This document shows positions 1 to 42,598 of a DNA stretch of 64,000 nucleotides, piece by piece. Each line of letters starts with the position of its first letter. Position 1 is the stretch's first letter. Location of the stretch: assembly GCA_964623055.1 (NCBI GenBank), contig CAZURK010000044.1, positions 2,152 through 66,151 of the forward strand, written 5' to 3'. The position numbers and the translations under genes are program-made. The stretch is from an uncultured Pirellulaceae bacterium. Its GTDB lineage: Bacteria > Planctomycetota > Planctomycetia > Pirellulales > Pirellulaceae. Below the pieces are notes generated by a model. It was given only the letters and a program-made list of their open reading frames with translations. It was not told the DNA's origin and searched no databases.

Positions 1-1229
1 GGGATTTGGTAACCGAGTTTCGAGACACCGTTCCCGACGTGGTCACACTGCCGCAGCACTTCAAGCAGAACGGCTACTACGCCGTGGGGATGGGAAAGAT
101 CTTCCACAATCCGTTTCCGGATCCGGAATCTTGGACGATCCCCGAGCAGCCGAAGCCCAAGGGGTACGCTTGGCATTCGGAGGAGACTCAAGAGCGTCTG
201 AAGCGGGCTCGGGACGAGGCCCGGCGGGCGGGAATGACCGAGCGGCAAATCGGCAATCGAATTCGTGGCCCGGCCACGGACATCGAAGACGTGCCCGACA
301 ATCGTCGGTTCGACGGCGCCTTGGGGGATCTTGCTCTGGAACATCTACGGAAGGCGGACGCCCAGCAGTCACCGTTCTTTCTCGCTGTGGGATTCATCTT
401 GCCCCATCTCCCTTGGACGCCGCCCAGGAAGTACTGGGATCTTTATGATCCAGCCGAGATTCCCATGGCGGCGAACGGCTTTCTACCCAAGGGGATGCCA
501 GCCGTAGCCTTCGGCGATAGGTCGATGGGCGGAATGTACGAACTGATGGATTGCATGGACATCAAAGATGCACCGAGCCCTTTCATGGGTAGCCTGACCG
601 AGGCCCAGCGTCGACGGCTCAAACACGGTTACTATGCATCGGTCAGTTTCGTGGACGCACAGATTGGCCGGCTGATAGAGGAATTGAAGCGACTCGGCCT
701 GGAGGACGATACGATCGTCGTGCTCTGGGGCGACCACGGTTGGAAGCTGGGCGAGCACAACGGATGGTGCAAGCAGACCAACTACGAAATCGACACGCGT
801 TCACCGCTGATCATCGCCGCTCCCGGTGCCAAGGCTAACGGGCAAACCAGCGACGCACTGGTGGAGTTTCTGGATATCTATCCCACGCTCTGCGAGTTGG
901 CCGGGCTGCCGCTTCCTGACCATCTGGAGGGCAAGAGCATGGCCCCCTTGCTCGACGATCCCAATCAGCCGTGGAAGACTGCCGCCTTCAGCCAGTTTCC
1001 GCGCCGCCACCAGGGCCGCAACTACGCAGGTTACGCCATGCGGACCGATCGGTATCGCTACGTCGAATGGATCGACCGCCGAACGCGCGACGTTGTTGCC
1101 ACCGAGTTGTACGACCACATGAGCGATTCTGCTGAAAACACGAACATTGCTGGCCAAGCGGAAAACAAACCCCTGCTTGCAAGACTCAGCCGTCAGATGT
1201 GGAATACATTACCGCAACCGCCGGACTAA
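1..1229 (+). CDS. Sulfatase (iduronate-2-sulfatase-like), 5' end cut by the window edge
   Basis: The ORF is open to position 1. It carries sulfatase C-terminal-half motifs LPHLPWTPPRKYWDLYD and VVLWGDHGWKLGEHNGW. The N-terminal CxPxR region must lie upstream of the window. Confidence 0.85.
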   Translation, partial: DLVTEFRDTVPDVVTLPQHFKQNGYYAVGMGKIFHNPFPDPESWTIPEQPKPKGYAWHSEETQERLKRARDEARRAGMTERQIGNRIRGPATDIEDVPDNRRFDGALGDLALEHLRKADAQQSPFFLAVGFILPHLPWTPPRKYWDLYDPAEIPMAANGFLPKGMPAVAFGDRSMGGMYELMDCMDIKDAPSPFMGSLTEAQRRRLKHGYYASVSFVDAQIGRLIEELKRLGLEDDTIVVLWGDHGWKLGEHNGWCKQTNYEIDTRSPLIIAAPGAKANGQTSDALVEFLDIYPTLCELAGLPLPDHLEGKSMAPLLDDPNQPWKTAAFSQFPRRHQGRNYAGYAMRTDRYRYVEWIDRRTRDVVATELYDHMSDSAENTNIAGQAENKPLLARLSRQMWNTLPQPPD

Positions 1230-1384: not shown

Positions 1385-3295
1385 ATGACACCTATGAACT
1401 CGCAAGCGAAGCATCCATTACGCCGCCAGCAAACGCTACTCGTGTGTGTCGGCATTTTGGCGCTGTCATTCACTAGCATTTGCACGGGAGCACAAGGTGA
1501 GAGGCCAGCAGTTCCCGTCATCAAGGACGGTGAAGCGCAGATCGTTCCTGAATTCAAAGACCCCGATTTGTGGGTCCGCCACGATCTCTGGGTCGAAACG
1601 GAGTTCGATTCCGACGATGATGGCAAACCAGACCGCATGCACGTGGCCGTCACCCGGCCTCGGCAAACCGAGTCCGAGGGGCTCAAACTCCCGGTGATCT
1701 ACGTGTCGAGCCCTTACTTCGCGGGGACCATTCCAAAAGTGAAGGAGTACTTTTGGAACCCTCGGCACGAACTCGGCGCCACTCCGCCGAAGCGAAAGGT
1801 GGCTCCTCCGTTCAAACGCAGGGGCGTGCGTCCCATCATCTCCAAGTCGCATCTAAATGACTGGGTGCCGCGTGGCTTTGTTGTCGTCCACTCGTCGTCG
1901 CCAGGAACTGGGCTTTCGCAAGGTTGCCCCACCGTCGGCGGTGACAACGAATCGCTCGCGCCGAAAGCCGTTATTGATTGGCTGGGCGGTCGCGCGCCCG
2001 GATACACCACGCCCGACGGCGATGAAGAGGTTGTCGCCTACTGGTCTACCGGAAAGGTAGGAATGACAGGCACGTCCTACAACGGGACGATCCCACTGGC
2101 CGCTGCGACCACCGGCGTCGACGGCCTGGAAGCGATCATTCCCATCGCGCCAAATACGTCGTACTACCACTACTATCGCTCCCATGGATTGGTCCGCCAC
2201 CCGTACGGATATATGGGCGAGGACATCGACTGCCTCTACGACTACATCCACAGCGGCAATCCAGAAAAACGCGAGCACTGCGACTGCACTGTTCGGGACA
2301 AAGAGATGGCCAATGGATTCGATCGGGTGACCGGCGACTACAACGACTTCTGGGCTGGTCGAGACTATCTTAACGACCTGGTCCCGATGAAAGCCGCCAC
2401 GTTGATGGCCCACGCATTCAACGACTGGAACGTCATGCCGGAACACAGCGTGCGAATCTATCAAGCGCTCAAAGCCAAAGGCGTCCCGGTCCAGGCGTAC
2501 TTCCACCAGGGAGGTCATGGTGGGGCGCCTCCGATGAAGATGATGAATCGATGGTTTACTCGCTATCTGCACGGCGTCGAAAACGGCGTCGAGAAAGACT
2601 CGCGGGTCTGGATTGCTCGCGAGAACGCCGATAGAGCCAAACCGACTGCCTACGAAGACTACCCGAACCCTGGGGCGTCTCCTGTCTCGCTGTATCTTGT
2701 CGGCGGCAGCCCGGAGCAGGGACGGCTCAGCCCCGTCTCGATGCCCAAGCAGGGCACCGAAACGCTGGTAGACAACTTTTCGTTTAGCGGCGCCGCACTG
2801 GCAAAGGCCGAATGGACAGAACATCGCCTGATCTACGTGACCTCGAAGCTGACTGAAGCGGTTCACCTGTCAGGCACTCCGCGTATCACCATCCGACTAG
2901 CTAGCAGCAAACCCGCCGCCAACTTGTCGGTCTGGCTTGTATCTCTGCCGTGGAACGAGTCCAGGAACGCAAAGATTACGGACAATATTATCACGCGCGG
3001 CTGGGCCGATCCTCAGAATCATCGCTCGCTCACTGAAAGCGAAACCCTCGTGCCGGGCCAGTTCTACGAAATGGGCTTCGATCTCCAGCCGGACGACCAG
3101 ATCATCCCTAAAGGGCAGCAGATTGGCCTGATGATTTTCTCGAGCGACCGCGACTTCACGCTCTGGCCCACGCCGGGCACGGAGTTGACGGTCGACCTGG
3201 ACGCAACATCCATCGAGCTGCCGGTGCTGGGCGGTTCCGAGGCATTTGCGAAAGCCCTTGGGAAAGAGCCAAGCGAGCCAGATGCCACGGAATGA
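1385..3295 (+). CDS. S15-family Xaa-Pro dipeptidyl-peptidase / CocE-NonD-type serine hydrolase, secreted
   Basis: GGAG lies just before the ATG. The N-terminus is hydrophobic and signal-like. The nucleophile elbow GMTGTSYNGT is present. The 636-aa length and C-terminal beta-sandwich-like region are typical of PepX/CocE. Confidence 0.8.
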   Translation: MTPMNSQAKHPLRRQQTLLVCVGILALSFTSICTGAQGERPAVPVIKDGEAQIVPEFKDPDLWVRHDLWVETEFDSDDDGKPDRMHVAVTRPRQTESEGLKLPVIYVSSPYFAGTIPKVKEYFWNPRHELGATPPKRKVAPPFKRRGVRPIISKSHLNDWVPRGFVVVHSSSPGTGLSQGCPTVGGDNESLAPKAVIDWLGGRAPGYTTPDGDEEVVAYWSTGKVGMTGTSYNGTIPLAAATTGVDGLEAIIPIAPNTSYYHYYRSHGLVRHPYGYMGEDIDCLYDYIHSGNPEKREHCDCTVRDKEMANGFDRVTGDYNDFWAGRDYLNDLVPMKAATLMAHAFNDWNVMPEHSVRIYQALKAKGVPVQAYFHQGGHGGAPPMKMMNRWFTRYLHGVENGVEKDSRVWIARENADRAKPTAYEDYPNPGASPVSLYLVGGSPEQGRLSPVSMPKQGTETLVDNFSFSGAALAKAEWTEHRLIYVTSKLTEAVHLSGTPRITIRLASSKPAANLSVWLVSLPWNESRNAKITDNIITRGWADPQNHRSLTESETLVPGQFYEMGFDLQPDDQIIPKGQQIGLMIFSSDRDFTLWPTPGTELTVDLDATSIELPVLGGSEAFAKALGKEPSEPDATE

Positions 3296-3325
3296 CGGCG
3301 ACCCTACAAATAAATTGGGAAAACG

Positions 3326-5068
3326 ATGAACACCTCTCGGGAACATGTGAGCCTCGCGTTGACCGTGCTCGTTGTCATGCTGGCGACAGCGCGGGATGCG
3401 TCGGCCGACAAGCCGCAGCATCCCAATGTGCTGTTCATCTCTGTCGATGATCTCAATGACTGGACGGGCTGCCTCGGCGGGCACCCTCAGGCGAAGACAC
3501 CGAATATCGATCGGCTCGCGGCCAGCGGAGTTCTGTTCACGAATGCCCATTGTCCGGCCCCCGCCTGCAATCCCTCACGCACGGCCATCATGACGGGAAT
3601 CTCGCCGCACAAGTCCGGTCTGTATGACAACCGTCAGAAGATGCGGCAAATCCTCCCTGATGCCGAGCTGTTGCCGAAATATTTCGCTACTCACGGCTAC
3701 TGGGCGGGTGGGTCTGGGAAGATTCTGCACTACTTCATCGATGCACAATCGTGGGATGAATACTACCCGGCAAAGGAGACGGAAGATCCGTTTCCTCGTA
3801 CTCTGTATCCGGAACAACGGCCTGTCAGTTTGCCTCGCGGTGGCCCTTGGCAGTATGTCGAAACCGACTGGGGACCGCTGGATGCGACGGACGAGGAGTT
3901 TGGCGGCGATTGGCTCGTCTCGAAATGGATCGGTGAACAACTTCGGAAACGGCACGACAAGCCGTTCTTCCTGGCATGCGGCATCTATCGGCCCCATGAG
4001 CCGTGGTTTGTTCCGAAGAAGTACTTTGATCTTTTCCCCATCGAGGACATTCAACTGCCACCGGGCTACAAGGAGGATGATCTCGATGATCTTCCCCCCG
4101 CCGGTAAGCGTCGCGGCCCCAATCGCTATTTCGCCCATATCCGAGCCCACAAGCAGTGGAAGGAGGGAATTCGGGGCTACCTGGCGTCGATCGCATTTGC
4201 CGATGCCATGGTCGGTCGCGTTATCGACTCGCTCGAAAGCGGTCCGAATCGCGACAATACGATCGTCGTGCTGTGGAGCGATCACGGTTGGCATCTGGGC
4301 GAGAAGCAGCACTGGCAGAAGTTCACGGCTTGGCGAGTCTGCACTCGTGTTCCGCTGATTGTGCGAGTTCCCGCAGGAACTTCGGGACTGCCAGCCGGCA
4401 CGCGCCCTGGAAGCACCTGCGCATGGCCGGTCAATCTTCTAAGTCTGTTCCCAACACTGACTGAACTGGCCGGTCTGCCACATAAGCCGGACAACGACGG
4501 GCCCAGTATCGTTCCGCTCCTCAGAAACCCGAAAGCAGACTGGCCTCACGTTTCCATTACGTACCTGTCTGAACCCGGCAGTTATGGGCTCAGTGAGGAG
4601 CGTTGGCGGTATATCCACTACGCGAACGGTGACGAAGAGCTTTATGACTGCCAACAAGATCCCTATGAATGGACGAACCTCGGGGCCGCCGCGGATCACG
4701 CGGCCAGGCTGGAGGAATTTCGGGCACTGGCACCGCAGACATTTGCACCACGGGTGCCGCCCACGGACGAATCGCTGCCGAAACTGAAGTGGCACGCGGC
4801 TGCCGGGTCACCGGCGCCGGCCTCGAAGCCGGATGGCGACCCGTTCGACGTTGTCTTCTTCAACGAGCGCAGGGATCCAGTCAATCTCCACTGGATGGAC
4901 CGCCAAGGAAAGCCAAAACCCTACGGCGCCGTCGCTCCCGGCCAGCGCAAGCGTCAGAGAACTCGCCCAGGTGCAGTGTGGCTCATAACCGACTCACAGG
5001 ACAAACCTCTTGGGCACTTCATCGTCGATGATCGCACTGCCCGGGCCCTCATCCCGGAGAGTGAATGA
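3326..5068 (+). CDS. Cys-type sulfatase with an extra C-terminal pVHL-beta-like domain
   Basis: Signal peptide is present. The metal site is PNVLFISVDDLND. The formylglycine motif is C-N-P-S-R-TAIMTG. It also has VVLWSDHGWHLGEKQHW. The last ~76 aa (4838..5065) are not sulfatase-like. Confidence 0.9.
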   Translation: MNTSREHVSLALTVLVVMLATARDASADKPQHPNVLFISVDDLNDWTGCLGGHPQAKTPNIDRLAASGVLFTNAHCPAPACNPSRTAIMTGISPHKSGLYDNRQKMRQILPDAELLPKYFATHGYWAGGSGKILHYFIDAQSWDEYYPAKETEDPFPRTLYPEQRPVSLPRGGPWQYVETDWGPLDATDEEFGGDWLVSKWIGEQLRKRHDKPFFLACGIYRPHEPWFVPKKYFDLFPIEDIQLPPGYKEDDLDDLPPAGKRRGPNRYFAHIRAHKQWKEGIRGYLASIAFADAMVGRVIDSLESGPNRDNTIVVLWSDHGWHLGEKQHWQKFTAWRVCTRVPLIVRVPAGTSGLPAGTRPGSTCAWPVNLLSLFPTLTELAGLPHKPDNDGPSIVPLLRNPKADWPHVSITYLSEPGSYGLSEERWRYIHYANGDEELYDCQQDPYEWTNLGAAADHAARLEEFRALAPQTFAPRVPPTDESLPKLKWHAAAGSPAPASKPDGDPFDVVFFNERRDPVNLHWMDRQGKPKPYGAVAPGQRKRQRTRPGAVWLITDSQDKPLGHFIVDDRTARALIPESE

Positions 5069-5112
5069 TCAATGGTCTATAGGTCGTTCCGTTACCTGGA
5101 GGCGTCAATCAC

Positions 5113-5469
5113 ATGTTTCGAGTCTTCTTGTCGATAGGGCTATTTGGCTTCTTCACCATCATCGCTATTGCGGCTGGATCGTCTTCTGCCGCAGAGCGGC
5201 CAAACGTACTGTTTGTGATTGTGGACGACTTGCGCCCGGAGCTGGGAGACCAACTCAACACGCTCGCCAAAGAGTTGCTAGCTAGCGACGGCAAACGTGG
5301 AGCGAGAAAAGCCCACGGCGGCGGCCCCGCCATCGCCGTGGTGACAGGAGCCAAGTCGAAAGGCGACGCGATCGACACCCTACTCATCTACCACACAGCC
5401 GCCGCCCCGCTGACCTGCCCCAAGTGCATCCAGCCCCGCAAGAAAGCGAAGGGCGGCCAGCGATTTTGA
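5113..5469 (+). pseudogene. N-terminal remnant of a sulfatase gene; only about the first 45 codons are sulfatase-like
   Basis: The ORF opens MFRVFLSIGLFGFFTIIAIAAGSSSAAERPNVLFVIVDDLRPELG, a signal peptide plus the sulfatase N-terminal DD metal motif. Homology stops near 5250, before any CxPxR motif. The rest of the ORF is unrelated sequence. Confidence 0.7.
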
Positions 5470-5471
5470 AT

Positions 5472-6662
5472 TCAGACTGCGCCCCGCCCGTCACTTCCAT
5501 GCATGTTCTTCTTAGCGGCCCAATTGGACCAGCTTGCCATATTCTCTGGGTTCAACTCCGGTCGCATTTCGACCGGAAGGTTGGTGTAGTGACGGGCACA
5601 GTTCATCCAACAGGAGTCGTTGATCGTCGCAAACACCTCTGGGCTCGCACCAGAAAAAGTGTGCTGTTTCCAGTATTCCTGAAACGCCTCGGCGCGAGGA
5701 TCGTCGGTGATGATCAAGCCGCTGGCCATAGCCGAGGTAGCGATTTCTGCCAATGATTCGGGCGAAAGTGACTCAGCCTCTGTGAAAGCCCAGTTGTGCG
5801 TTGAAATGCGTAGGACGCCGTTGGGGCCAACGCCGGGATGGGAAAGGTTGTTGCGCGACATCGCATCGCTTGAGAGGGCCGACAAATACGCCGCAAACGC
5901 AAAGCTGTGTGCTGAATGAATTCGTAGCTGAAAAGAGTAGAGCCAGGCCGCCAACGACGGCATATCAACCTCCGCGTTATACGTCCATTTGTTCCACTTG
6001 AGCGTTACCGGTACGGACGCCGCCGGAGTCGGGCCCGCATCGGAAGCAGCACTTGCGTCAATCTGCGCGTTCTTCACGCGGATTTCTTGCTCAAGTTGAT
6101 GAACACGTTGTGCCAGTTCGTATTTCTCTGATTTCAGGCTCTGCACTTCCATTTCAATATCGCCGCGGACCCAACCGGGACGAGGGATTATCGCAATTGC
6201 CTTTGCCAATGAAGCAACAACTTTCGTGCTCAAATCAGACTTGTCACGCCAAAACGTGACTTGGTGCGTGTCAGTCACCTTTTTGCGGAATGCTCGTAGC
6301 AGCCGTTGGGCCTTTGCCGTCTTTTCTACCACTCCGGCTGGGAGTTTATCGATGTCTTCGTGTATGAACGCAAGGATCGGCACACCCTTGGATGATGCGT
6401 AATCAAATTCGCGTTCGACAAAACTCACGCCGACTTCACTGAGCGTCCCGTATCTTCCGGCTAAGACGAGCACGAAGTAATCCGACAGGTCAATCGTTCG
6501 CTCAATCACCGTCCAGCTGTCCTCGGCGTCCGAGCCGAACAACTCCATCCCCGCTGGGAAATGCCCCATTGCTTGGATTGCATTCGCGATTTCGTCCCGC
6601 TCAGGGCGCAGGTCCGCATAGGTGGAGCTTATGAAACTCTGAAATCGCTTCTTAAGTGCCAT
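5472..6662 (-). CDS. DUF4062-type (N-deoxyribosyltransferase/TIR-like fold) domain protein with a coiled coil and an unknown C-terminal domain
   Basis: Start chosen at MALKKRFQSFISSTYADLRPERDEIANAIQAMGHFPAGMELFGSDAEDSWTVIERTIDLSDYFVLVLAGRYGTL...SFVEREFDYA...PILAFI. This matches the DUF4062 pattern vFISStf-DL--ER------i---G--p-gmE-F-a------------I--cD--i-i-G-RYGs. A heptad-like segment EMEVQSLKSEKYELAQRVHQLEQEIRVKNAQ follows, then ~200 aa that I cannot place. The track ORF extends to 6893, but those extra 77 codons look non-coding. Confidence 0.75.
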   Translation of the reverse strand: MALKKRFQSFISSTYADLRPERDEIANAIQAMGHFPAGMELFGSDAEDSWTVIERTIDLSDYFVLVLAGRYGTLSEVGVSFVEREFDYASSKGVPILAFIHEDIDKLPAGVVEKTAKAQRLLRAFRKKVTDTHQVTFWRDKSDLSTKVVASLAKAIAIIPRPGWVRGDIEMEVQSLKSEKYELAQRVHQLEQEIRVKNAQIDASAASDAGPTPAASVPVTLKWNKWTYNAEVDMPSLAAWLYSFQLRIHSAHSFAFAAYLSALSSDAMSRNNLSHPGVGPNGVLRISTHNWAFTEAESLSPESLAEIATSAMASGLIITDDPRAEAFQEYWKQHTFSGASPEVFATINDSCWMNCARHYTNLPVEMRPELNPENMASWSNWAAKKNMHGSDGRGAV

Positions 6663-6913
6663 GGTGTCTCGGTGGCTAACGGAGTGCAGGCAAGACAGCC
6701 GGGAACTCAACATGGCGAGCTGGCTACTTGCTGGGCCCATTATATGCGGGGGGCAAACGAAAGGCCACACGGACGATACTGGGAATTGACGAACACGAGG
6801 CCAATACATACCATTTGGGTCCTTTCTGGCTTGGTTCCGGCCAAGAGCCCTACGGGAACCCTGCAAGTTTTTCTGTGTCTTAACACGTCTCATTTTTCAG
6901 GCATTTCCGCCAC

Positions 6914-7120
6914 GTGCAGTGGCACGATTGGGTCCACGAGGCTGGAGTAGCCGGAGAACTGAGAGCAATCGAGCTATACGATCAGCAAAGCGATCCCGAC
7001 GAGAACATCAACATTGCCAACCTTGTGGAGAATCGGGAATTGGTCCAAAAGCTCTCCAAACAAATGCAAACAATTTGGCCGAACGGCGTCTTACGACCAG
7101 ATGCTCGGAGGGAACGTTGA
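6914..7120 (+). pseudogene. C-terminal remnant of the same (or another) sulfatase gene
   Basis: ELRAIELYDQQSDPDENINIANLVENRELVQKLSKQMQTIW parallels the C-terminus of the sulfatase at 1..1229, ATELYDHMSDSAENTNIAGQAENKPLLARLSRQMWNTL. There is no sulfatase core upstream of it. Its reading frame differs from the N-terminal remnant. Confidence 0.7.
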
Positions 7121-7252
7121 TGTTTGCAGGCGACTCAGCCTCGCAATCCTTCAAACGGTTGGTATTCTGAAACGTGTTGCGTTCGAGTTCGCCCATTACG
7201 TGCGCCGGGGCTCGAACGCTTACCTCACCCTCAATGACACAAAGAAAACACC

Positions 7253-8179
7253 ATGAAACGTCTCTTTTTCTCGCTGCTGGTTATCCTCTCTGCGGCGGCC
7301 ACCGTCTGTGCGGCAGAAGACGCGAAGACCACGACCGTTACGTTCTATCACACGTCCGACCTGCACGAGCACTCCGCGCCAATGGCGCAAATCGCCGGGT
7401 TTGTCGAGGCCCGAAAGAAGGAACAGCCCAACGTCCTGCTGGTCGATACGGGCGACTGGTTCAACAAGGGCGATCTGACCGACTTGAACACCCGCGGCGA
7501 AGCGATGGCCGCCATGCTCGGCGTCTGCAAGTACGATGCGGTGATTCCGGGCAACCACGATTACTCGTTCGGCACCAGCCGGCTGGCTGAGTTGATTGAC
7601 GCGCACTCGCTGCCGATGGTGGCGGCCAACTGCCGATGGCCGGACGAGATCAAGCCGCGTCAAGCCGCACCGTTTCGCATCTTCAAACTCGAAGGAATCA
7701 CGGTTGGGATCATCGGCACGGCCACACCAATCTCGACCCAGCGGAAGGACAAGCTACTGGAAATCCTCCCGATCGGCGGGTCGCTCGGCGTCGTGGTGGC
7801 CGAGTTGGATCGGCAAGTCGACGTGATCGCGCTGCTGACGCATGTTGGCGTCGAGGCCGACCGCAAGCTGGCCCGTGCTCTGCCGCGTGTGGACGTGATC
7901 TTCGGCGGCCACAACCACAAGCGAATCGCGGAACTCGACTTCGACGCCGAGACGCAGACGGTGATTCAGCACAGCGGCGGAGTTGGCAAATGCATCGGAG
8001 AGTTGACGTTGACCTGGGACGGCGAGAAGATCGTCGACCGCAAGGTTAATCTGTTGAAAGTCACCGCAGAGATGCCATCATCGGCCGCGGTCGAGTCCGT
8101 ACGCGCCAAGTACGTTTCCAAGCCGCTGGCCGAAGAGCAACCTTCGCCGGCAGTGCAGGAGCCTGCGGAGACTCGGTAA
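7253..8179 (+). CDS. Secreted calcineurin-like metallophosphoesterase (5'-nucleotidase/UshA N-domain-like)
   Basis: Signal peptide is present. Metallophosphoesterase motifs occur in the expected order: HTSDLHEH, DTGDWFNKGD, GNHDYSFG, LLTHVG, GGHNH. Confidence 0.8.
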   Translation: MKRLFFSLLVILSAAATVCAAEDAKTTTVTFYHTSDLHEHSAPMAQIAGFVEARKKEQPNVLLVDTGDWFNKGDLTDLNTRGEAMAAMLGVCKYDAVIPGNHDYSFGTSRLAELIDAHSLPMVAANCRWPDEIKPRQAAPFRIFKLEGITVGIIGTATPISTQRKDKLLEILPIGGSLGVVVAELDRQVDVIALLTHVGVEADRKLARALPRVDVIFGGHNHKRIAELDFDAETQTVIQHSGGVGKCIGELTLTWDGEKIVDRKVNLLKVTAEMPSSAAVESVRAKYVSKPLAEEQPSPAVQEPAETR

Positions 8180-8374
8180 CGCCCACAAAAGGTCCGTGTG
8201 GGGTCACCCATAACCGCCATCGTGTCAATCCCGGGTTCTCGCGACTCTTCTGAGAACGGCCGTTTCTTGAATTGCCGACTATTCCCAAGAAATATTGCGT
8301 TAGATTCTCGGGTGACCGGGAGCCCATCTAGCCAGCGAGCTGCCAACGACCCACCCTCTGGGAGAATCGGCCTG

Positions 8375-11557: not shown

Positions 11558-12058
11558 ATGAGACGTTATGAGTATCCCGCCGACCTTGCGGCCGAACTCG
11601 GGCGAGAGCGCCGGCGACGCCTGGTATTGTGGTGCTGTATCGCTTCGGTCGTCTTGCTGGCCGCCGTCTACGCGGGCGTTCAGAACGACGCAATGCTGGG
11701 CTCGGCCGTGGGCGCGAGCCTGATGATCGCGATCCTGGGAGTCTTCGAGGCTGTGCTGAGCCGGTTTGCCCGACGAACGTCGCGCCTGGCCGGTCACGTG
11801 CTGGAGGTCGATGGAGACCGGGTTCGCCAGCTCGATCGCGACGGATCACTGGTCGATGAGATCGACTTGAGCCAGCCGTACGCTGTCAGCTACCCGTATC
11901 ACGTCTGCGGCAACGCCATCTACCACGTTCGGCAACGTTTGGATTCCGGCCAGTCGCGACAGATCGAGTTCAGCTCCCGAATCACCGACGCAAAACACCT
12001 GGTCATCGAGGTGCTGCAACACGACGAATGGCCACCCGGGGAGAACGACACGGCATGA
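11558..12058 (+). CDS. Hypothetical membrane protein (two TM helices plus a small soluble domain)
   Basis: GGGAGAAAGG lies upstream of the ATG. Two hydrophobic segments are present, LVLWCCIASVVLLAAVYAG and LGSAVGASLMIAILGVF. No family was recognised. Confidence 0.5.
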   Translation: MRRYEYPADLAAELGRERRRRLVLWCCIASVVLLAAVYAGVQNDAMLGSAVGASLMIAILGVFEAVLSRFARRTSRLAGHVLEVDGDRVRQLDRDGSLVDEIDLSQPYAVSYPYHVCGNAIYHVRQRLDSGQSRQIEFSSRITDAKHLVIEVLQHDEWPPGENDTA

Positions 12059-12132
12059 TTGTGCCCGCTGTGCGGCGCGTGATTCAAGCCAGGAACGCTT
12101 TAGGGATCAACTCAAATGAGAGGTATCGGATT

Positions 12133-12552
12133 ATGCTCATCACCTGTCTATTTCACACATGCATGTGCTCAGTAGTCCTGGCCGTGCCGGCTGAACCGTC
12201 ATGCGGCTGGCCTGAGACGGCAGGCCCGAATCCACCGACGGCCGTCCAGCAACCAGATCGAGTGGATACGTTGACCGACGCTGAACTGGCCAAGATCGAC
12301 TCCGACCTTAAGAGTCCTGACTGGCACATCAGGCGCCGCGCATTATGGCGAATGGCGCATGCAGGTTGTTCTGCCGATGCTGTGATCGACAAATACGTAG
12401 CCGTCGCCGCGCCTGCCCTTCAGTACCCCGGAGATTGCGCGCAAACGCCTATCAGTCAGGTTCTCCAAGTCCTCGGAAAACCGGCGTTTCCTCATAGCGA
12501 AGTGGCAGGCAGGGGGGAGAGCCGATCAACGGACACTCGACGAGCTCCTTAA
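12133..12552 (+). CDS. Hypothetical secreted HEAT-like repeat protein, N-terminal part (possibly frameshifted)
   Basis: Hydrophobic N-terminus. DWHIRRRALWRMAHAG is a HEAT/PBS-lyase-like repeat. The ORF ends shortly after a G6 run, and the +1 frame is open from 12401 onward. Confidence 0.45.
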   Translation: MLITCLFHTCMCSVVLAVPAEPSCGWPETAGPNPPTAVQQPDRVDTLTDAELAKIDSDLKSPDWHIRRRALWRMAHAGCSADAVIDKYVAVAAPALQYPGDCAQTPISQVLQVLGKPAFPHSEVAGRGESRSTDTRRAP

Positions 12553-12553
12553 G

Positions 12554-12994
12554 GTGGCCGGGGACCGTACGCGCCTGACTGACATCCTGCTGGCGAACCT
12601 CATGTACATGGCGGACCATTCGCTGAGCGCCGGCGATGTGCCGGCCTTGATAGCGCGGGCTGCGGATGAAACCGCCGAAGAAGACATTCGCGTTGGCGCG
12701 GTCAATTTGCTGGGACTGTGGGGGGCACTACCCAAAAACGCGACCAAGGCGTTTCTTCGACTGACGACATCCAAATCCGAAAGATTATCGCTCGCAGCGG
12801 CGGGCGCCATCGGCGCCGTCCTGGAAGACCCCAAGGATACCTCGCAACTCGTTCGCGCCGTCCAATCACGCGCCAAGAACGAGCAGCGCGTCCTTGTTCG
12901 GCAGGCCCTTGACGAGAGCGCAAGGATCCTCGTTGGAAGTTCCCAAGAGGAGCTCGATAGAAAACGCATGGAACGAGTTCAGAGGGGGTGGTAG
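12554..12994 (+). CDS. Hypothetical HEAT-like repeat protein, C-terminal part (may be continuous with 12133..12552)
   Basis: Alpha-helical repeat-like sequence, for example EDIRVGAVNLLGLWG and LSLAAAGAIGAVLED. It has only a GTG start and no convincing RBS. The frame remains open for 150 nt upstream. Confidence 0.45.
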   Translation: MAGDRTRLTDILLANLMYMADHSLSAGDVPALIARAADETAEEDIRVGAVNLLGLWGALPKNATKAFLRLTTSKSERLSLAAAGAIGAVLEDPKDTSQLVRAVQSRAKNEQRVLVRQALDESARILVGSSQEELDRKRMERVQRGW

Positions 12995-13359
12995 TATTCC
13001 TTCCGATGCGCCGTGCGACGTGATAGCCTGCAACGAAGCAGTCTGTAGATGATACACGGGTCAGTCTAAAACCAAGATCCCGACAGCGGCGCTCGATGAT
13101 CTTCAGCCATTCGCAGAAACTCGCCAAGAAGATCAACGTTACTCGGTGTGACGAATGACCGAATCCTACGAAAACGAAGCCGAACTTGCCGAGTTCACCG
13201 CTTTTGTAAAGCAGCGTAATCCATCCCGTCGTCTTCACGACCGCGAGCGATACGTGCTCAGTGTGTACAGGAAACACTTCGCGGAGATCAAGGCAAGAGT
13301 TGAAGGCGATCTTTCATAGATCGCTGCTATCGGAACCCGAGAGAGATGGGAGATTGAAG

Positions 13360-14262
13360 ATGTCACTCGTTACCGCTTCTTTACTCGTAATGTCGTTCGC
13401 CGGAAGTGCCGACGCGGAAATGCCTGCCGACTTCCTCAAAGTCGAGTCCAGAGCATGGAGCCGCTGGCTCGACGAAAACCTTCATGTGTTTTGGCATGGA
13501 ATCCCGCTCAGGGATGTGTTGGCGAGCGAATTTGGCGCTGCCGCCTTCACCGTTGATGACGTGAAAGCCCTTGGCACGCCGATCACTTTTGATGCCAGCA
13601 ACATGACGCGGGGAGCCTCGCTGTGGCGTCTAAGTCAGCGATACGGCTTCACCATACGATGGGCACAGAAGGATGAGCCAAGGATCTTTCTGGGCTTGTC
13701 CGAAGCCGAGCATCGTGAACACCAAGTAGGCGGCGTCACTTTGACTGCGATCACCCAGGTTATGCGGTCAGACTACAAGACCTACCAGGATTTGAAGCGG
13801 AGAGGGCAAGTCACCAAAGAAGAGATCATGGACGGTATCCTCTACTATGCCATTGATGTGGATCGTGACCTGAATTTCGGTGACGCCGCCGCCCATGTGA
13901 ATGAGGTACAACGCTACAAGACGAAGGTGCCGGGAGAAGCTGGAATCGAGGCACAATTCACTGCAAGGGTAAGATGGATCGAGACTATCGGCAGACGCAA
14001 CGCAGAGGTAGTCCCAATCGGAGTGGACCCTCGCTGGTTGGTGGGAATCGAAATACTCTCCATTCAGAAGCCTGCGGATCGGTTTGACAAGAAAGGCGAT
14101 ACTATTCTGGCGATCCACAATCCAGTGCGGGTTTTCCTCGATGATCGTGAGAAGACTCTTGGCAAGCTGTACGAATTCAAGACAGTGGGATTCCTGCATG
14201 ACGGTCGTCCCACCTACCTTCGCGTTGAGGCCCAAGAAAAAGACGAGACGGAACCGAAGTAG
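13360..14262 (+). CDS. Hypothetical secreted protein (STN-like N-terminal module)
   Basis: GGGAG RBS lies before the ATG at 13360. Signal peptide is MSLVTASLLVMSFAGSADA. IPLRDVLASEFGAAAFTVDD...ASLWRLSQRYGFTIRW resembles secretin/TonB short N-terminal domains. The region is AT-richer than its surroundings. Confidence 0.6.
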   Translation: MSLVTASLLVMSFAGSADAEMPADFLKVESRAWSRWLDENLHVFWHGIPLRDVLASEFGAAAFTVDDVKALGTPITFDASNMTRGASLWRLSQRYGFTIRWAQKDEPRIFLGLSEAEHREHQVGGVTLTAITQVMRSDYKTYQDLKRRGQVTKEEIMDGILYYAIDVDRDLNFGDAAAHVNEVQRYKTKVPGEAGIEAQFTARVRWIETIGRRNAEVVPIGVDPRWLVGIEILSIQKPADRFDKKGDTILAIHNPVRVFLDDREKTLGKLYEFKTVGFLHDGRPTYLRVEAQEKDETEPK

Positions 14263-14376
14263 TTGTCGCAACCCACTTCCGGTCTCAGATCTGAAGCTGG
14301 ATACCAAGCCGAAATCAGAGGCAAAGCTGCGTCCCCGGGCCGGAGCCGGCACCACACTAACGATCGGGGTAAGACA

Positions 14377-14886
14377 ATGGAGCATACGATGCCGACAATA
14401 ACGTACGTGTCAATCTGCTTCGCCGTGTTGCTCTCTTCATGTGGCCGTTGTGTCTCGTCACCCGAATACCAGGCGCACGAGAAGGTTCGGCAGCAGTTCA
14501 TCAAGCGCGCCAGGTCGTTCGTTCCCGAGGGTGAGCTGGACCAGATCGACGAGAGCTATTTTACCGGTGAGGGCTTCCGCGACTGGTTCCGGTTTCCGTT
14601 GGTCTACCCTTACGAAATGGAAATGATCGATGGCCTGGATGACGGTTCGATCGCGGGCGGAGACGCCGCCAGAATCACCGGTATTACTCATTGTGCATTC
14701 GACGCCCGCGTTCTTGTGGGGAAGTCCGAAGATGGATGGCTATTGTTTGAGTTTGAGAGCGGGGAACTCGGGTCCTTTACCTCCAAGCAAGACGTGATGG
14801 CGGAGGCCGTGAAACGCGGCTTCGACCCCAAGATTGAAATCCTCAGTGTGGAGGAGCAGTTTAGGCGATTCGCGAGTGACTGGTGA
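14377..14886 (+). CDS. Hypothetical lipoprotein
   Basis: Internal start MEHTMPTITYVSICFAVLLSSC carries a lipobox-like LSSC. No family was recognised. Confidence 0.55.
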   Translation: MEHTMPTITYVSICFAVLLSSCGRCVSSPEYQAHEKVRQQFIKRARSFVPEGELDQIDESYFTGEGFRDWFRFPLVYPYEMEMIDGLDDGSIAGGDAARITGITHCAFDARVLVGKSEDGWLLFEFESGELGSFTSKQDVMAEAVKRGFDPKIEILSVEEQFRRFASDW

Positions 14887-39316: not shown

Positions 39317-42300
39317 ATGACTCGTCGAATCCAACTGGCAGCGATCTTGGCCCTGTTGGCCCCGTCCGGCCAGCTCCCCGCGGCTGGGGTCGATTCAAGC
39401 AGGAATACTGATGGTGTGCTGACCTGGCATATGGGCACTATCCAACCTGGTCAGTCGACGCGCCAAGTGGTACTGTTCGCATACGCCGAGTCGCCACAAG
39501 GCGTAGCCAAACACCTGGATGCTGCGCGGCGACAATTCGCGCAGCCATCCGACCCGCCGGCCGTGCCCACCGACCAGCCGGCTCCGTCGCTGGTGTGGAT
39601 CGAGAACAACGTGACCGACTTCGCCCTGGCCGGTCCGGGACATTTCTTCTGGGAAGGTGTGAAACGGCAGAGTCTCGTTTGTTCCAAGGGCGGGCAGTTG
39701 AGTCGGTTCGGCTACTATCTCGGTTACCACGACGGTGCCGCGCGACGGGCCGGAACACTCATCAACTCCACGAAGTTGGAGAACTTGCAGATCGTCCAGC
39801 CGATGCGGCCCATCGACGGCAAGCAAGCGGTAGGCATCGTCGAGACCGCCGACAAGAAGCTGCGCACGCGAATTCGTCCCGTGATGGGCGAAGGCCCGGT
39901 AGTGGCGGTCGAATTCGTGATGACCAACCTCTCGGGCCAGCCACTTGACCAGATGCGGCTTTCGGTCTACTCGAACCTCGAATCGGCCCACACGCACGAA
40001 GGCGACTACAGCACGCTGGACCGCCTGACCGACGGTCTGCTGGTGTTCGATCCGGCAACAAGGATGTGCGTCGTGATGGCCGGGTTGTCCACGCCCTCGT
40101 TGGGCTATTCGGGCAACTGGGCGTCGCAAAGGCAGCTTGCCGAGGGTACGGGCATCGCCCCGGACAAATGGAACGAGTTCACCGGATCGGGAGAAGATCT
40201 CAAAGAGCTGCTCGCCAAGTTGCCAAAGCCCAACGTGCCACACCCGATCGCCGCGCCGAGCGGTGGTCCGGCCACGCCCGAGACTCGCGACCTGACTCCC
40301 ACCGAGGCGCGCGACGTCTTGCACCGCGATTGGCTGTTTCAGACCGATGGCAAGCCAACGGTGGCCCGCGCGCTCGAAGAGATCGGTTGGGCCCGCGAGT
40401 TGGCCGCCCGATTCGGCCGCCATCCGCAACCGCCCGATCTGTCGGCCGAGTTGTCGTGCCTAGCCGATCTGGAAAAGCGGCTTGCCGCTGTCGATGCGAA
40501 CGCAGCCGACCCGGTCACGGTGCAGGAGTTGTACTTGGCCGTGCGTGCCGCAAAGCGTGAGGTGGTCCTCAAGAACCCGGCGATTAACTTCACCAGCGTG
40601 CTGCTGATCGACAACCCCAATCCGCAAGGCGCCGAGTGGCCGCATCAGGCCCGGCATCGCAACGGCATGATGGCCGTTCCGGGCGGCCGGTTGCTGGTGC
40701 TGGAAGGATTGCACCCCGGCGGACACCTGCGGCAGTTGGCCCCCGACAAACCTGGCAGCTTCTGGCGACCCGACGTCTCCTTTGACGGCCAGCGGGTGCT
40801 GTTCTGCTACAAGGCACACGACGATATCAGCTTCCATTTGTACGAGATCAATATCGACGGAACTGGACTGAGGCAGCTTACGGCGGGCGATTACGACGAC
40901 ATCGACCCGATCCACCTGCCCGACGGGCATATCGTCTTCACCACCACGCGAGCTAACACGTACGTCCGCTGCATGCCTTACACTTACTGCTACGTGCTGG
41001 CCCGGTGCGATGCTGACGGCAAGAACGTCTACATCATCAGCCGCAACAACGAGCCCGACTGGTGTCCGGCGGTGCTGAACGACGGGCGTGTCTGCTACTC
41101 GCGGTGGGAGTATCACGACAAGGCCCTGTGGCGGATTCAGAGCCTGTGGTCCATGAATCAGGACGGCACCGGCGTGGCCACGTTTTGGGGCAACCAGAGC
41201 GTCTGGCCCGATCACCTGGCTGAACCGCGGCCCATCCCAGGCAGTTATCGCGTGATGTTTACCGGCGTGGCGCACCACAACTGGTTTGCGGGCTCGATCG
41301 GCATTCTTGATACGGCTAAGGGCCGCAATTTCCCGTTCGGGCTGACCAAAGTCACCTGCGATATGCCCTGGCCCGAGTGCGGAACACCTCCGCTGGACCC
41401 GCACGAGGCCGACGACTATCACGCCTCGGGCCGGTTCACCGCCTACAAATCGCCGTACCCGATCTCGGAGGAGGATTTCCTCGTGTCGGCCAATCGCGAC
41501 GGCAAGTTCCATCTGTACCTGATGGACGTACACGGCAACCGCGAACTGATCTACGAAGCAGTCCACAACGCCTGGTATGCAATGCCGGCGTCGGCGCGGC
41601 CCATGCCGCAACCACACGCCGACCGCGTCGTCTGGCCCGGCACGGGCGACGAGCGCCAGCCGGCCGAGCCGGGCGTGATCTACAGCGCCAACGTATATCA
41701 AGGTGTACACGATTTGCCGGAGGGGATCGTCAAGTACCTCCGTGTCATCCAGATGGACGCCCGAACCTACTCGACCTGGACGCGCGACGGGCGTTTCTCG
41801 GGCCCGGTGGTTTCGGCCATCCAGGACGACGGCGTGAAGCGAATCCTGGGTACCACGCCCGTGCTGGCCGACGGCTCGGTGTCGGTCAAGGTGCCGGCCG
41901 GCAAGGCGTTGCATTTCCAACTACTGGACGAACGCTATCGGGCGCTGCACACGATGCGTTCGTTCACCGGCGTGATGCCGGGCGAGCGTCGCGGCTGCGT
42001 CGGCTGCCACGAGCTACACAGCAACTCGCCGGTCAACCAGCAAAGCCTGGCCGCTCGACGTCCACCGGTCGAACTGACCACGCCGCCGTGGGGCACGGAG
42101 AGCATCAGCTACGAACAGCTCGTCCAACCGGTGCTGGACCGTTACTGCGGCGAATGCCACCAGGGCGACGGCGAGGCGCGCAAGGATTTCGACCTGACCT
42201 TGCGCTCCGGCAAAAGCCCTTTCAAAGAGCCGTACCTGAGCCTGGTCGGTTACGCCCACTATTTTCGTGGCGTCTCCGACGTCAAAGACGAGGGCATCGC

Positions 42301-42598
42301 CGGAGCGCTGAAAGCCGAGAACTTCGACCAGAGCGACCCGACCAGCTACCTCACGTTCCGTCCGATGAAATATCTGTCGTACAAGAGCCGCCTGATCGAG
42401 ATGGCCTCCAGCGGTAAGCACTACGACGTGAAGCTCGACGCGACCAGCCTGAGGCAACTGATCGGTTGGGTCGACGCCAACTGTCCCTACCGTGGCGACC
42501 ACGAGGTGCGCGCCATCCCCGACCCCAACTTCGCGGGAATCGAGGCATTGCCCATCCGACCGAGAACGAAAACGGCACCGCGGATTGCGCGACCGTAA
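39317..42598 (+). CDS. Large secreted TolB/HzsA-middle-domain-like beta-propeller protein with two CxxCH haem-binding motifs
   Basis: GAAGGAG RBS and a signal peptide. The PD40-like segments include FDGQRVLFCYK, LYEINIDGTGLRQLT and DGKNVYIISRNNEPDWCPAVLNDGRVCYSRWEY. The CxxCH motifs are RGCVGCHE and DRYCGECHQGDG, the latter PSCyt-like. Confidence 0.7.
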   Translation: MTRRIQLAAILALLAPSGQLPAAGVDSSRNTDGVLTWHMGTIQPGQSTRQVVLFAYAESPQGVAKHLDAARRQFAQPSDPPAVPTDQPAPSLVWIENNVTDFALAGPGHFFWEGVKRQSLVCSKGGQLSRFGYYLGYHDGAARRAGTLINSTKLENLQIVQPMRPIDGKQAVGIVETADKKLRTRIRPVMGEGPVVAVEFVMTNLSGQPLDQMRLSVYSNLESAHTHEGDYSTLDRLTDGLLVFDPATRMCVVMAGLSTPSLGYSGNWASQRQLAEGTGIAPDKWNEFTGSGEDLKELLAKLPKPNVPHPIAAPSGGPATPETRDLTPTEARDVLHRDWLFQTDGKPTVARALEEIGWARELAARFGRHPQPPDLSAELSCLADLEKRLAAVDANAADPVTVQELYLAVRAAKREVVLKNPAINFTSVLLIDNPNPQGAEWPHQARHRNGMMAVPGGRLLVLEGLHPGGHLRQLAPDKPGSFWRPDVSFDGQRVLFCYKAHDDISFHLYEINIDGTGLRQLTAGDYDDIDPIHLPDGHIVFTTTRANTYVRCMPYTYCYVLARCDADGKNVYIISRNNEPDWCPAVLNDGRVCYSRWEYHDKALWRIQSLWSMNQDGTGVATFWGNQSVWPDHLAEPRPIPGSYRVMFTGVAHHNWFAGSIGILDTAKGRNFPFGLTKVTCDMPWPECGTPPLDPHEADDYHASGRFTAYKSPYPISEEDFLVSANRDGKFHLYLMDVHGNRELIYEAVHNAWYAMPASARPMPQPHADRVVWPGTGDERQPAEPGVIYSANVYQGVHDLPEGIVKYLRVIQMDARTYSTWTRDGRFSGPVVSAIQDDGVKRILGTTPVLADGSVSVKVPAGKALHFQLLDERYRALHTMRSFTGVMPGERRGCVGCHELHSNSPVNQQSLAARRPPVELTTPPWGTESISYEQLVQPVLDRYCGECHQGDGEARKDFDLTLRSGKSPFKEPYLSLVGYAHYFRGVSDVKDEGIAGALKAENFDQSDPTSYLTFRPMKYLSYKSRLIEMASSGKHYDVKLDATSLRQLIGWVDANCPYRGDHEVRAIPDPNFAGIEALPIRPRTKTAPRIARP

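Follow-up and report, generated by a model that had tools for sequence, protein, structure and literature searches.

A hollowed sulfatase gene filled with a predicted TIR-like NADase gene in an uncultured Pirellulaceae bacterium

The hollowed locus

The DNA considered here is a stretch of 64,000 nucleotides (the window) from an uncultured Pirellulaceae bacterium (GenBank assembly GCA_964623055.1, contig CAZURK010000044.1, positions 2,152 to 66,151 of the forward strand). Near its start lie the two ends of a sulfatase gene, called X below, and between them 1,665 bp of other DNA (the filler, 5248-6911). The filler has three parts: a 73-codon gene fragment, an intact minus-strand gene for a 396-amino-acid (aa) protein with an N-terminal DUF4062 domain, and about 250 bp of non-coding DNA. 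On the plus strand, the gene order is a sulfatase, an S15 peptidase, a further sulfatase with a C-terminal region like the VHL beta domain (sulfatase-VHL), the hollowed locus, a metallophosphoesterase, and BlaI/BlaR-like genes (Table 1). Sulfatases abound in the window, and its genes have relatives on contigs of Pirellulaceae and Planctomycetota. The arrangement is no assembly artefact, since the 4.9 kb from 3300 to 8200 are 100% identical across contigs of three separate Joint Genome Institute (JGI) samples, 3300013118, 3300013120 and 3300009326.

Sulfatase X in related loci

A metagenome scan with the sulfatase-VHL protein as query yielded 80 related loci. In three of these (L018, L019 and L025), sulfatase X is complete or nearly complete and lies directly after the ortholog of the gene at 3326-5068. 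In L018, the S15 peptidase is 74% and sulfatase-VHL 78% identical to those of the window, and X is the next gene, intact and 547 aa long. L019 keeps the order of the S15 peptidase and sulfatase-VHL (77%), with X as the next gene, and L025 has X next to a sulfatase-VHL that is 80% identical. In the window, 44 bp separate the sulfatase-VHL stop from the start of the N-terminal remnant, a spacing that resembles that of X in L025. On the other side, eleven relatives were reached through the phosphoesterase, none with informative upstream DNA; the 143 bp of L004 and the 600 bp of L005 are non-homologous.

Two remnants of one gene

The open reading frame (ORF) 5113-5469 opens with a Sec-type signal peptide (MFRVFLSIGLFGFF), followed by ...AAERPNVLFVIVDDLRPELG. 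The segment PNVLFVIVDDLRPELG at 5200-5247 aligns to X residues 57-72 with 87.5% identity over 16 aa. A tblastn comparison of X residues 47-72 from L018 with window 5167-5247 gives 63% over 27 aa; nothing aligns past 5247, and homology at the DNA level ends at 5246. Despite the alignable metal-binding DD motif, this 118-aa ORF has no match in Pfam.

The C-terminal remnant comprises only the last ~70 residues of a sulfatase. Its ORF (6914-7120) reads ...VQWHDWVHEAGVAGELRAIELYDQQSDPDENINIANL... and ends in the tail VQWHDWVHEAGVAG. It shares 20 of 39 residues with the C-terminal end of the window's sulfatase at 6-1229 (E = 2e-10) and weakly matches Pfam SGSH_C (E = 1e-3, 19.7 bits, under the 29.3-bit cut-off). 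Identity to X of L018 is 48% over 58 aa (E = 5.5e-16; X residues 483-540 against window 6905-7078). Among all ORFs of the 80 loci, it matches the three X genes best (66-72 bits), all non-X sulfatases scoring 43 bits or less. The tail of X is 71% identical between L018 and L025 over the last 72 residues, against 87.6% overall, and so changes at about 2.3 times the rate of the remaining protein. At the distance between the window and L018 (78% for sulfatase-VHL), a tail identity of about 49% is expected. Because the observed 48% agrees with this value, the remnant behaves as an ortholog, without excess decay. An import of the C-terminal remnant together with the filler, which its low G+C content (GC) might suggest, was dropped: its divergence from X is ortholog-like, and the tail of X in the relatives also has low GC at third codon positions (GC3).

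The closest relative of the C-terminal remnant is a 531-bp contig, L173 (ENA ERZ25748493 NODE_1050636, coverage 3.95; protein P0123), which is 89.6% identical in DNA to window 6912-7122. Homology begins exactly at 6912, and 5' of the equivalent point L173 runs on into X sequence (KRYMGYSMVTARYHY) as the window does not. The junctions are therefore placed at 5246-5248 on the left and at 6911/6912 on the right; a right junction at 6905 ('FRH' versus 'YHY') was dropped, since this 89.6%-identical contig puts the start of homology at 6912. X residues 73-482, about 410 codons with the SCAPSR formylglycine motif included, are absent from the locus: tblastn finds no other X pieces between the remnants, and no counterpart of these residues exists anywhere in 5000-7300. 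The sulfatase locus is thus a pseudogene. Both remnants are orthologous to X, and they most probably derive from a single ancestral gene.

An earlier reading of this DNA, made without database searches (the sequence-only reading), had already proposed one ancestral sulfatase with its core hollowed out, and the occurrence of an X that matches both remnants in the same slot of L018, L019 and L025 supports this. It had rightly seen a signal peptide and metal motif with similarity ending near 5250, before the CxPxR motif (the alignment stops at 5247), the likeness of 6914-7120 to the C-terminus of an intact sulfatase, and the different frames of the two remnants (5113 versus 6914). Its loss of the catalytic core also stands, with the count raised from ~390 to ~410 codons. 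It had further suggested that relatives might hold an intact sulfatase between the 3326-5068 gene and the phosphoesterase. Such a gene does follow the ortholog of the former, but on the phosphoesterase side there is no syntenic relative. Nor are the remnants' ORFs of 118 and 68 aa independent, conserved small genes, as it had considered they might be: the 73-codon tail of the former finds only its own ORF among 5.8 billion proteins.

It is quite improbable that the remnants stem from two different sulfatases, with a larger deletion having taken the 3' part of one, the intervening genes and the 5' part of the other. Several tandem sulfatases do follow the sulfatase-VHL gene in the more distant loci L037, L043, L044 and L050. 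The N-terminal stretch also fits sulfA-like genes about equally well (80% over 20 aa, against 87.5% over 16 aa for X), and its signal peptide is not of the type seen in X of L018. However, in the nearest syntenic loci X directly follows sulfatase-VHL and ends in the sequence of the C-terminal remnant, the 44-bp spacing resembles that of X in L025, and the C-terminal remnant prefers X over any sulfA-like gene by the scores given above.

The related loci have irregularities of their own. L019:1316-5367 is collinear with L018:3004-8389 minus four segments of 694, 101, 214 and 292 bp; these deletions lie in or beside the S15 peptidase gene and in X, with an overlap of 3-13 nt at each joint, and they are either real microhomology-mediated decay or an artefact of assembly or amplification. 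Of X, L173 retains no more than residues 147-180, 331-387 and 471-540, with changes of frame at the joints (two deletions); it is a second, independent hollowed copy of this sulfatase. In L025:3322-8143, the sulfatase-VHL ortholog and an upstream sulfatase are read together as a single 1047-aa ORF, while a frameshift breaks X into two ORFs, 6535-6933 and 6593-8143. L004:1-143 (JABMRB010000520.1) is labelled Candidatus Nealsonbacteria; short tandem repeats (CTCACTG / CTCATAG units) at its contig end precede an ortholog, 82% identical, of the planctomycete-type phosphoesterase, and the bin label is probably wrong.

Sulfatase-VHL itself carries a C-terminal extension of ~100 residues that matches the Pfam VHL beta domain (PF01847, E = 8e-6, 26.2 bits, cut-off 21). 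The extension is kept in the 80 metagenome relatives, and the pairing is unusual among sulfatases.

Parts and composition of the filler

The left end of the filler looks, from its codon content, like the 3' end of a third gene of no known family. Its codon log-odds are 0.229, against 0.290 +/- 0.126 for in-frame pieces of the host and -0.343 +/- 0.137 for off-frame ones, and its GC3 is 0.757; on these two measures, the 73-codon tail is a genuine coding remnant with a host-like composition. Neither the 118-aa ORF nor an antisense ORF at 5109-5387 finds anything in Pfam, NCBIfam or PADLOC. The tail's stop codon is only 2 bp from the stop of the convergent DUF4062 gene. In the 118-aa ORF, which is called as a gene by JGI, the intact signal peptide is fused in frame to the tail; this frame runs towards the DUF4062 gene and could give rise to a small chimeric peptide for secretion. 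Terminator-like sites in the region do not exceed in number what is expected from shuffled sequence.

The start codon of the DUF4062 gene is common to its homologs, and a longer ORF reaching up to 6893 scores as non-coding. The DNA from 6663 to 6911 presumably holds the promoter and 5' untranslated region of this gene. A promoter scan gave nothing exceeding shuffle expectation, and 6663-6911 is not conserved upstream of DUF4062 homologs. The sequence-only reading had described the filler as one minus-strand gene plus an orphan coding-like stretch, and both are confirmed, at 5472-6662 and 5248-5466.

Table 1. Coordinates of the remnants, the filler and the neighbouring genes in the window
Feature	Coordinates	Strand	Remarks
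Sulfatase	6-1229	+	Window's own intact sulfatase
S15 peptidase	1385-3295	+	
Sulfatase-VHL	3326-5068	+	Intact upstream neighbour; sulfatase with VHL-beta-like C-terminal region; synteny anchor
N-terminal remnant of sulfatase X	5113-5247	+	Sec-type signal peptide and metal-binding DD motif PNVLFVIVDDLRPELG; stops before CxPxR motif
Left end of filler	5248-5469	+	73 codons and stop, in frame with N-terminal remnant; GC 63%
G+C-rich hairpin and T-run, possible terminator	5315-5333	-	Consensus match only; ~140 nt downstream of DUF4062 stop
DUF4062 gene, intact	5472-6662	-	396 aa; ATG at 6662
Right end of filler	6663-6911	-	Non-coding upstream DNA of DUF4062 gene; all six frames score negative
C-terminal remnant of sulfatase X	6912-7120	+	...VQWHDW...ELYDQQSDPDENINIA...; stop 7118-7120; frame differs from N-terminal remnant
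Metallophosphoesterase, secreted	7253-8179	+	Downstream neighbour

The filler has a GC of 55.5%, against 59.9 +/- 2.3% for 1.65-kb segments of the 64 kb (5th percentile), and its tetranucleotide distance has a z of 2.0. The 1.65-kb segments starting at 5500-5800 have the lowest GC and are the most tetranucleotide-deviant of the whole 64 kb. The GC3 of the DUF4062 gene (0.615) is under that of every neighbouring gene (0.66-0.79). The filler is thus AT-richer, as the sequence-only reading had it, but the edges of the deviation miss the junctions. Composition gives moderate backing to a horizontal acquisition of the DUF4062 gene.

The same figures bear on the idea that the filler is not foreign but the product of an intragenomic move of a resident DUF4062 gene with part of its neighbour, the low GC being a property of the family. 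The tail is host-like in GC and codon usage, members of the gene family have a lower GC than their surroundings in every case with flanks to compare, and the AT-richness of the DUF4062 gene is matched by that of the native C-terminal remnant and spacer. Such a move is nonetheless very improbable, for the window has no second copy or source locus of the gene, the family is extremely sparse and patchy with its eight full-length homologs, and none of the related loci recovered by synteny carries the gene, all of which accords with horizontal gain.

Elsewhere in the window, the run of ORFs after BlaR (11558-14886) has no Pfam match except one weak HEAT_2, and its position is that of the region with the second-lowest GC and of a tetranucleotide outlier (1.65-kb segments starting at 12600-13100); it may be another acquired segment. 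Other tetranucleotide outliers among the 1.65-kb segments lie at about 40400-42450 and 56500-58150 (L1 distance 0.30-0.315, against a mean of 0.236).

The DUF4062 protein

The 396-aa protein consists of an N-terminal DUF4062 domain, a helical stalk at about 166-204, and a rare C-terminal auxiliary domain at about 205-396. The match to the DUF4062 profile (PF13271) reaches 82.9 bits (E = 1.9e-23, cut-off 24.7) and covers profile positions 3-82 of 82; PADLOC (2023) and NCBIfam return nothing for the gene. According to three 2026 bioRxiv preprints, DUF4062 (renamed NIR) is a Toll/interleukin-1 receptor (TIR)-like NADase whose catalytic Glu is E97 in KpSwz, E108 in PsAvs2 and E87 in Eva01. Single proteins with DUF4062 and variable auxiliary domains form the horizontally spread, NAD+-depleting abortive-infection systems Swarozyc, Evangelion and Vulcan (10.64898/2026.05.01.722283; 10.64898/2026.06.25.731849; 10.64898/2026.09.04.749371). 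A phmmer search of PDB returns KpSwz (10wc, 11cq, 11cv) with E = 1.8e-37 and 37% identity, residues 3-198 of the query aligning with 2-196 of KpSwz. In this alignment, E85 (VEREFDYA) falls on the Ala of the KpSwz E97A chain (TEKAFDYA), and both E83 and E85 are invariant in all nine family members.

The AlphaFold2 model has a mean predicted local distance difference test (pLDDT) score of 63.7, with 65-86 in the core, which is moderate confidence. Its best Foldseek matches in PDB are the TIR domains of SARM1, RPS4/RRS1 and L7, and DNPH1 (E ~2e-3, probability 1.0). The model thus suggests, with moderate confidence, that the DUF4062 domain has an alpha/beta fold like that of TIR domains and nucleoside 2-deoxyribosyltransferases. 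The auxiliary domain (205-396) has no Pfam match, no HEAT repeats and no STAND NTPase, and Foldseek returns nothing for it. An exhaustive HMMER search over 1.84 billion representatives finds only two other clusters at 50% identity, both of the protein's own family, and one weakly matching repeat protein. This last protein, P0122 (1609 aa), combines a ResIII/DEAD helicase at its C-terminus with an array, at its N-terminus, of repeats of ~21 residues (hPGVSPEAVAAL...); these repeats weakly match residues 66-146 of the auxiliary domain. The match hints that the domain may contain a few P0122-like repeats.

The gene product is predicted from these similarities to be a DUF4062 TIR-like NADase of the Swarozyc/Evangelion kind. 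The 396-aa protein would be expressed, have NADase activity and serve in anti-phage defence. By analogy with Swarozyc, Evangelion and Vulcan, its auxiliary domain would sense a phage component, and the TIR-like domain with E85 would then hydrolyse NAD+, so that the infection is aborted.

Homologs of the DUF4062 gene

Among 5.8 billion proteins, the 396-aa protein has eight full-length homologs, in unrelated contexts. Their genes have a GC of 44-52% and are AT-richer than their own flanks where flanks exist (L101, L104). Across the homologs' flanks (L095-L104), homology is confined to the coding region, and nothing is shared with the flanks in the filler; a 26-nt GC hairpin match in the homologs' flanks failed on alignment. 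The L095 homolog, 59% identical, is flanked by Mrr-like and AbiZ-like genes on a 300-kb contig, a setting that speaks for a defence role. This contig also codes for a protein with a PSCyt1 domain, a family which we take to be associated with planctomycetes. At least one relative of the 396-aa protein is on a planctomycete-type contig. Many plasmids, as well as 68 viral contigs of IMG/VR, carry the N-terminal module alone.

How the filler may have arrived

The filler ends have no terminal direct or inverted repeats above chance level, tRNA and Rfam searches of the locus gave no match, and there is no transposase, integrase or other recombinase among the neighbouring genes. The sequence-only reading, which had seen no transposase, integrase, tRNA or obvious repeats, is upheld by these searches. 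The 241 nt downstream of the DUF4062 gene, where an attC site was sought, fold no better than shuffled sequence (z = -0.60), and the ~250 bp of upstream DNA are atypical for an integron cassette. A 19-nt inverted repeat (5227-5245 versus 6596-6614, 84% complementary) was taken as chance, because 54 pairs of this sort occur within 2.5 kb and its use would break the DUF4062 gene. Both of its arms encode DLRPE, within DDLRPELG of the sulfatase remnant and ADLRPERD of the DUF4062 protein, and one arm ends at the left junction. Since the filler joins the 3' end of one gene to a whole convergent gene and its upstream DNA, it resembles a random chromosomal fragment and not a cassette or transposon.

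We therefore consider it unlikely that the DUF4062 gene came into X on an insertion sequence, transposon, integron cassette or island, and that later deletions erased the element and most of X. In favour of this course, the 2026 preprint literature reports DUF4062 genes on plasmids, prophages, satellites and integrative elements, the N-terminal module is on plasmids and viral contigs here as well, and X and its neighbours collect internal deletions (four in L019, with their 3-13 nt overlaps, and two in L173). Yet no trace of an element is left in the repeats, the attC fold, the tRNA search or the neighbourhood, the left end of the filler is an ordinary-looking coding fragment instead of an element end, and the flanks of the eight homologs have nothing in common with the filler.

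Illegitimate recombination, including the homology-facilitated kind, can fill a deletion in the recipient with unrelated DNA, without target-site duplication, terminal repeats or a recombinase gene. In the present case, the slot after sulfatase-VHL is a synteny breakpoint. In L025 X has a frameshift, and in L019 as well as L173 it carries internal deletions that change the frame. If the deletions in L019 and L173 are real, then X is dispensable and the clade is prone to microhomology-level deletions, which would fit illegitimate recombination. The deviant composition of the filler, the low GC3 of its gene, the eight sparse homologs, and the N-terminal module on plasmids and viral contigs lead us to infer a foreign origin, and we see illegitimate recombination as the likely mechanism of entry.

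The account that we favour and regard as probable is that illegitimate recombination replaced part of a dispensable paralog, X, with a horizontally acquired single-gene defence system. An ancestral periplasmic sulfatase X of ~547 codons would have sat directly after the 3326-5068 sulfatase and would have lost codons ~73-482, with 1,665 bp of unrelated DNA now in their place. The filler would be an arbitrary chunk of another chromosome rather than a discrete mobile element, and it would have been acquired horizontally and joined in by illegitimate recombination, at the level of microhomology or by end-joining. This could have happened in a single deletion-plus-insertion event, or by insertion into an X that was already decaying.

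A number of observations weigh against this account. The compositional signal is modest, with edges that do not coincide with the junctions; the filler's left 224 bp have 63% GC and host-like codon usage, so at least part of the filler could come from elsewhere in this genome or from that of a close relative, and GC is only 52-53% in the native C-terminal remnant with the spacer up to 7252. The closest sulfatase-VHL relatives (L015, L016, L017 and L022) carry other genes in the X slot, and in no relative found is the phosphoesterase at 7253 syntenic with X, which indicates that the whole neighbourhood has been rearranged. The 16-20 conserved residues of the N-terminal remnant are common to many sulfatases, and sulfA-like genes score similarly; the assignment of this remnant to X therefore rests mainly on position. 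Its signal peptide is of the Sec type, that of X in L018 Tat-like (RRQF). The metagenome scans, which were aimed at synteny, found no donor sequence, and for this reason neither microhomology at the junctions nor a one-step or two-step order can be demonstrated. The DUF4062 gene is not in a defence island here, its neighbours being sulfatases, a peptidase, a phosphoesterase and BlaI/BlaR. It also has no PADLOC (2023) model, its auxiliary domain is dissimilar to KpSwz past residue 198, and the mean pLDDT of its model is 63.7.

Significance

The sequence-only reading had left the gene in the filler unidentified. It now belongs with the DUF4062 TIR-like NADases, an identity that gives the replacement event a plausible selective meaning. 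The locus offers an example, resolved to the base, of how an immune gene may be gained at the price of one paralog, with no recognisable mobile element, by a bacterium that has redundant sulfatase genes in the hundreds. It would also extend the DUF4062/NIR NADase defence family to the Planctomycetota, and the new, very rare auxiliary domain, presumably a sensing one, could reveal a new phage trigger. Otherwise this is ordinary genome flux, that is, gene loss and gene gain, and no long-standing question is opened.

A wider reading is conceivable, if doubtful. The 396-aa protein and its eight relatives would then form a new lineage of Swarozyc-type NADase defence with an undescribed sensor domain, spreading in these sulfatase-rich genomes not on mobile elements but as naked chromosome fragments over dispensable paralogs, by microhomology-level recombination, and the deletions of X in L019 and L173 would reflect the same process.

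Comparison with known systems

The closest known system is Swarozyc KpSwz of Klebsiella pneumoniae (10.64898/2026.05.01.722283), which is likewise a single protein with an N-terminal DUF4062 domain, a GWVR/intertwining strand and a helical stalk, and whose catalytic Glu is kept (E85 here, E97 in KpSwz). In contrast to KpSwz, the ~190-aa auxiliary domain has no sequence similarity to the portal-sensor domain, the host is a planctomycete, and the gene lies outside a defence island here. Evangelion (Eva01; 10.64898/2026.06.25.731849) is plasmid-borne and its auxiliary region is described as short, whereas the present gene is chromosomal and its auxiliary region long. With Vulcan, Vesta and Avs-NIR (10.64898/2026.09.04.749371), the predicted protein shares a NIR/DUF4062 NADase effector with a catalytic Glu. 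However, it lacks the HEAT repeats of Vulcan and the STAND NTPase of Avs-NIR, and no same-strand operon partner like the alkaline phosphatase of Vesta (vstB) lies beside its gene. An analogy between Vesta and the adjacent sulfatase was rejected, since the latter is on the opposite strand, a pseudogene and secreted, and the adjacency is a coincidence.

At the level of the event, the outcome is like that of illegitimate or homology-facilitated illegitimate recombination, but no donor sequence, anchor homology or junction microhomology came to light. The locus also resembles the deletional decay of redundant paralogs in sulfatase-rich Planctomycetota, in that a dispensable family member has lost its catalytic core. 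It differs from such decay in that the gap is filled with what appears to be a complete, functional foreign gene.

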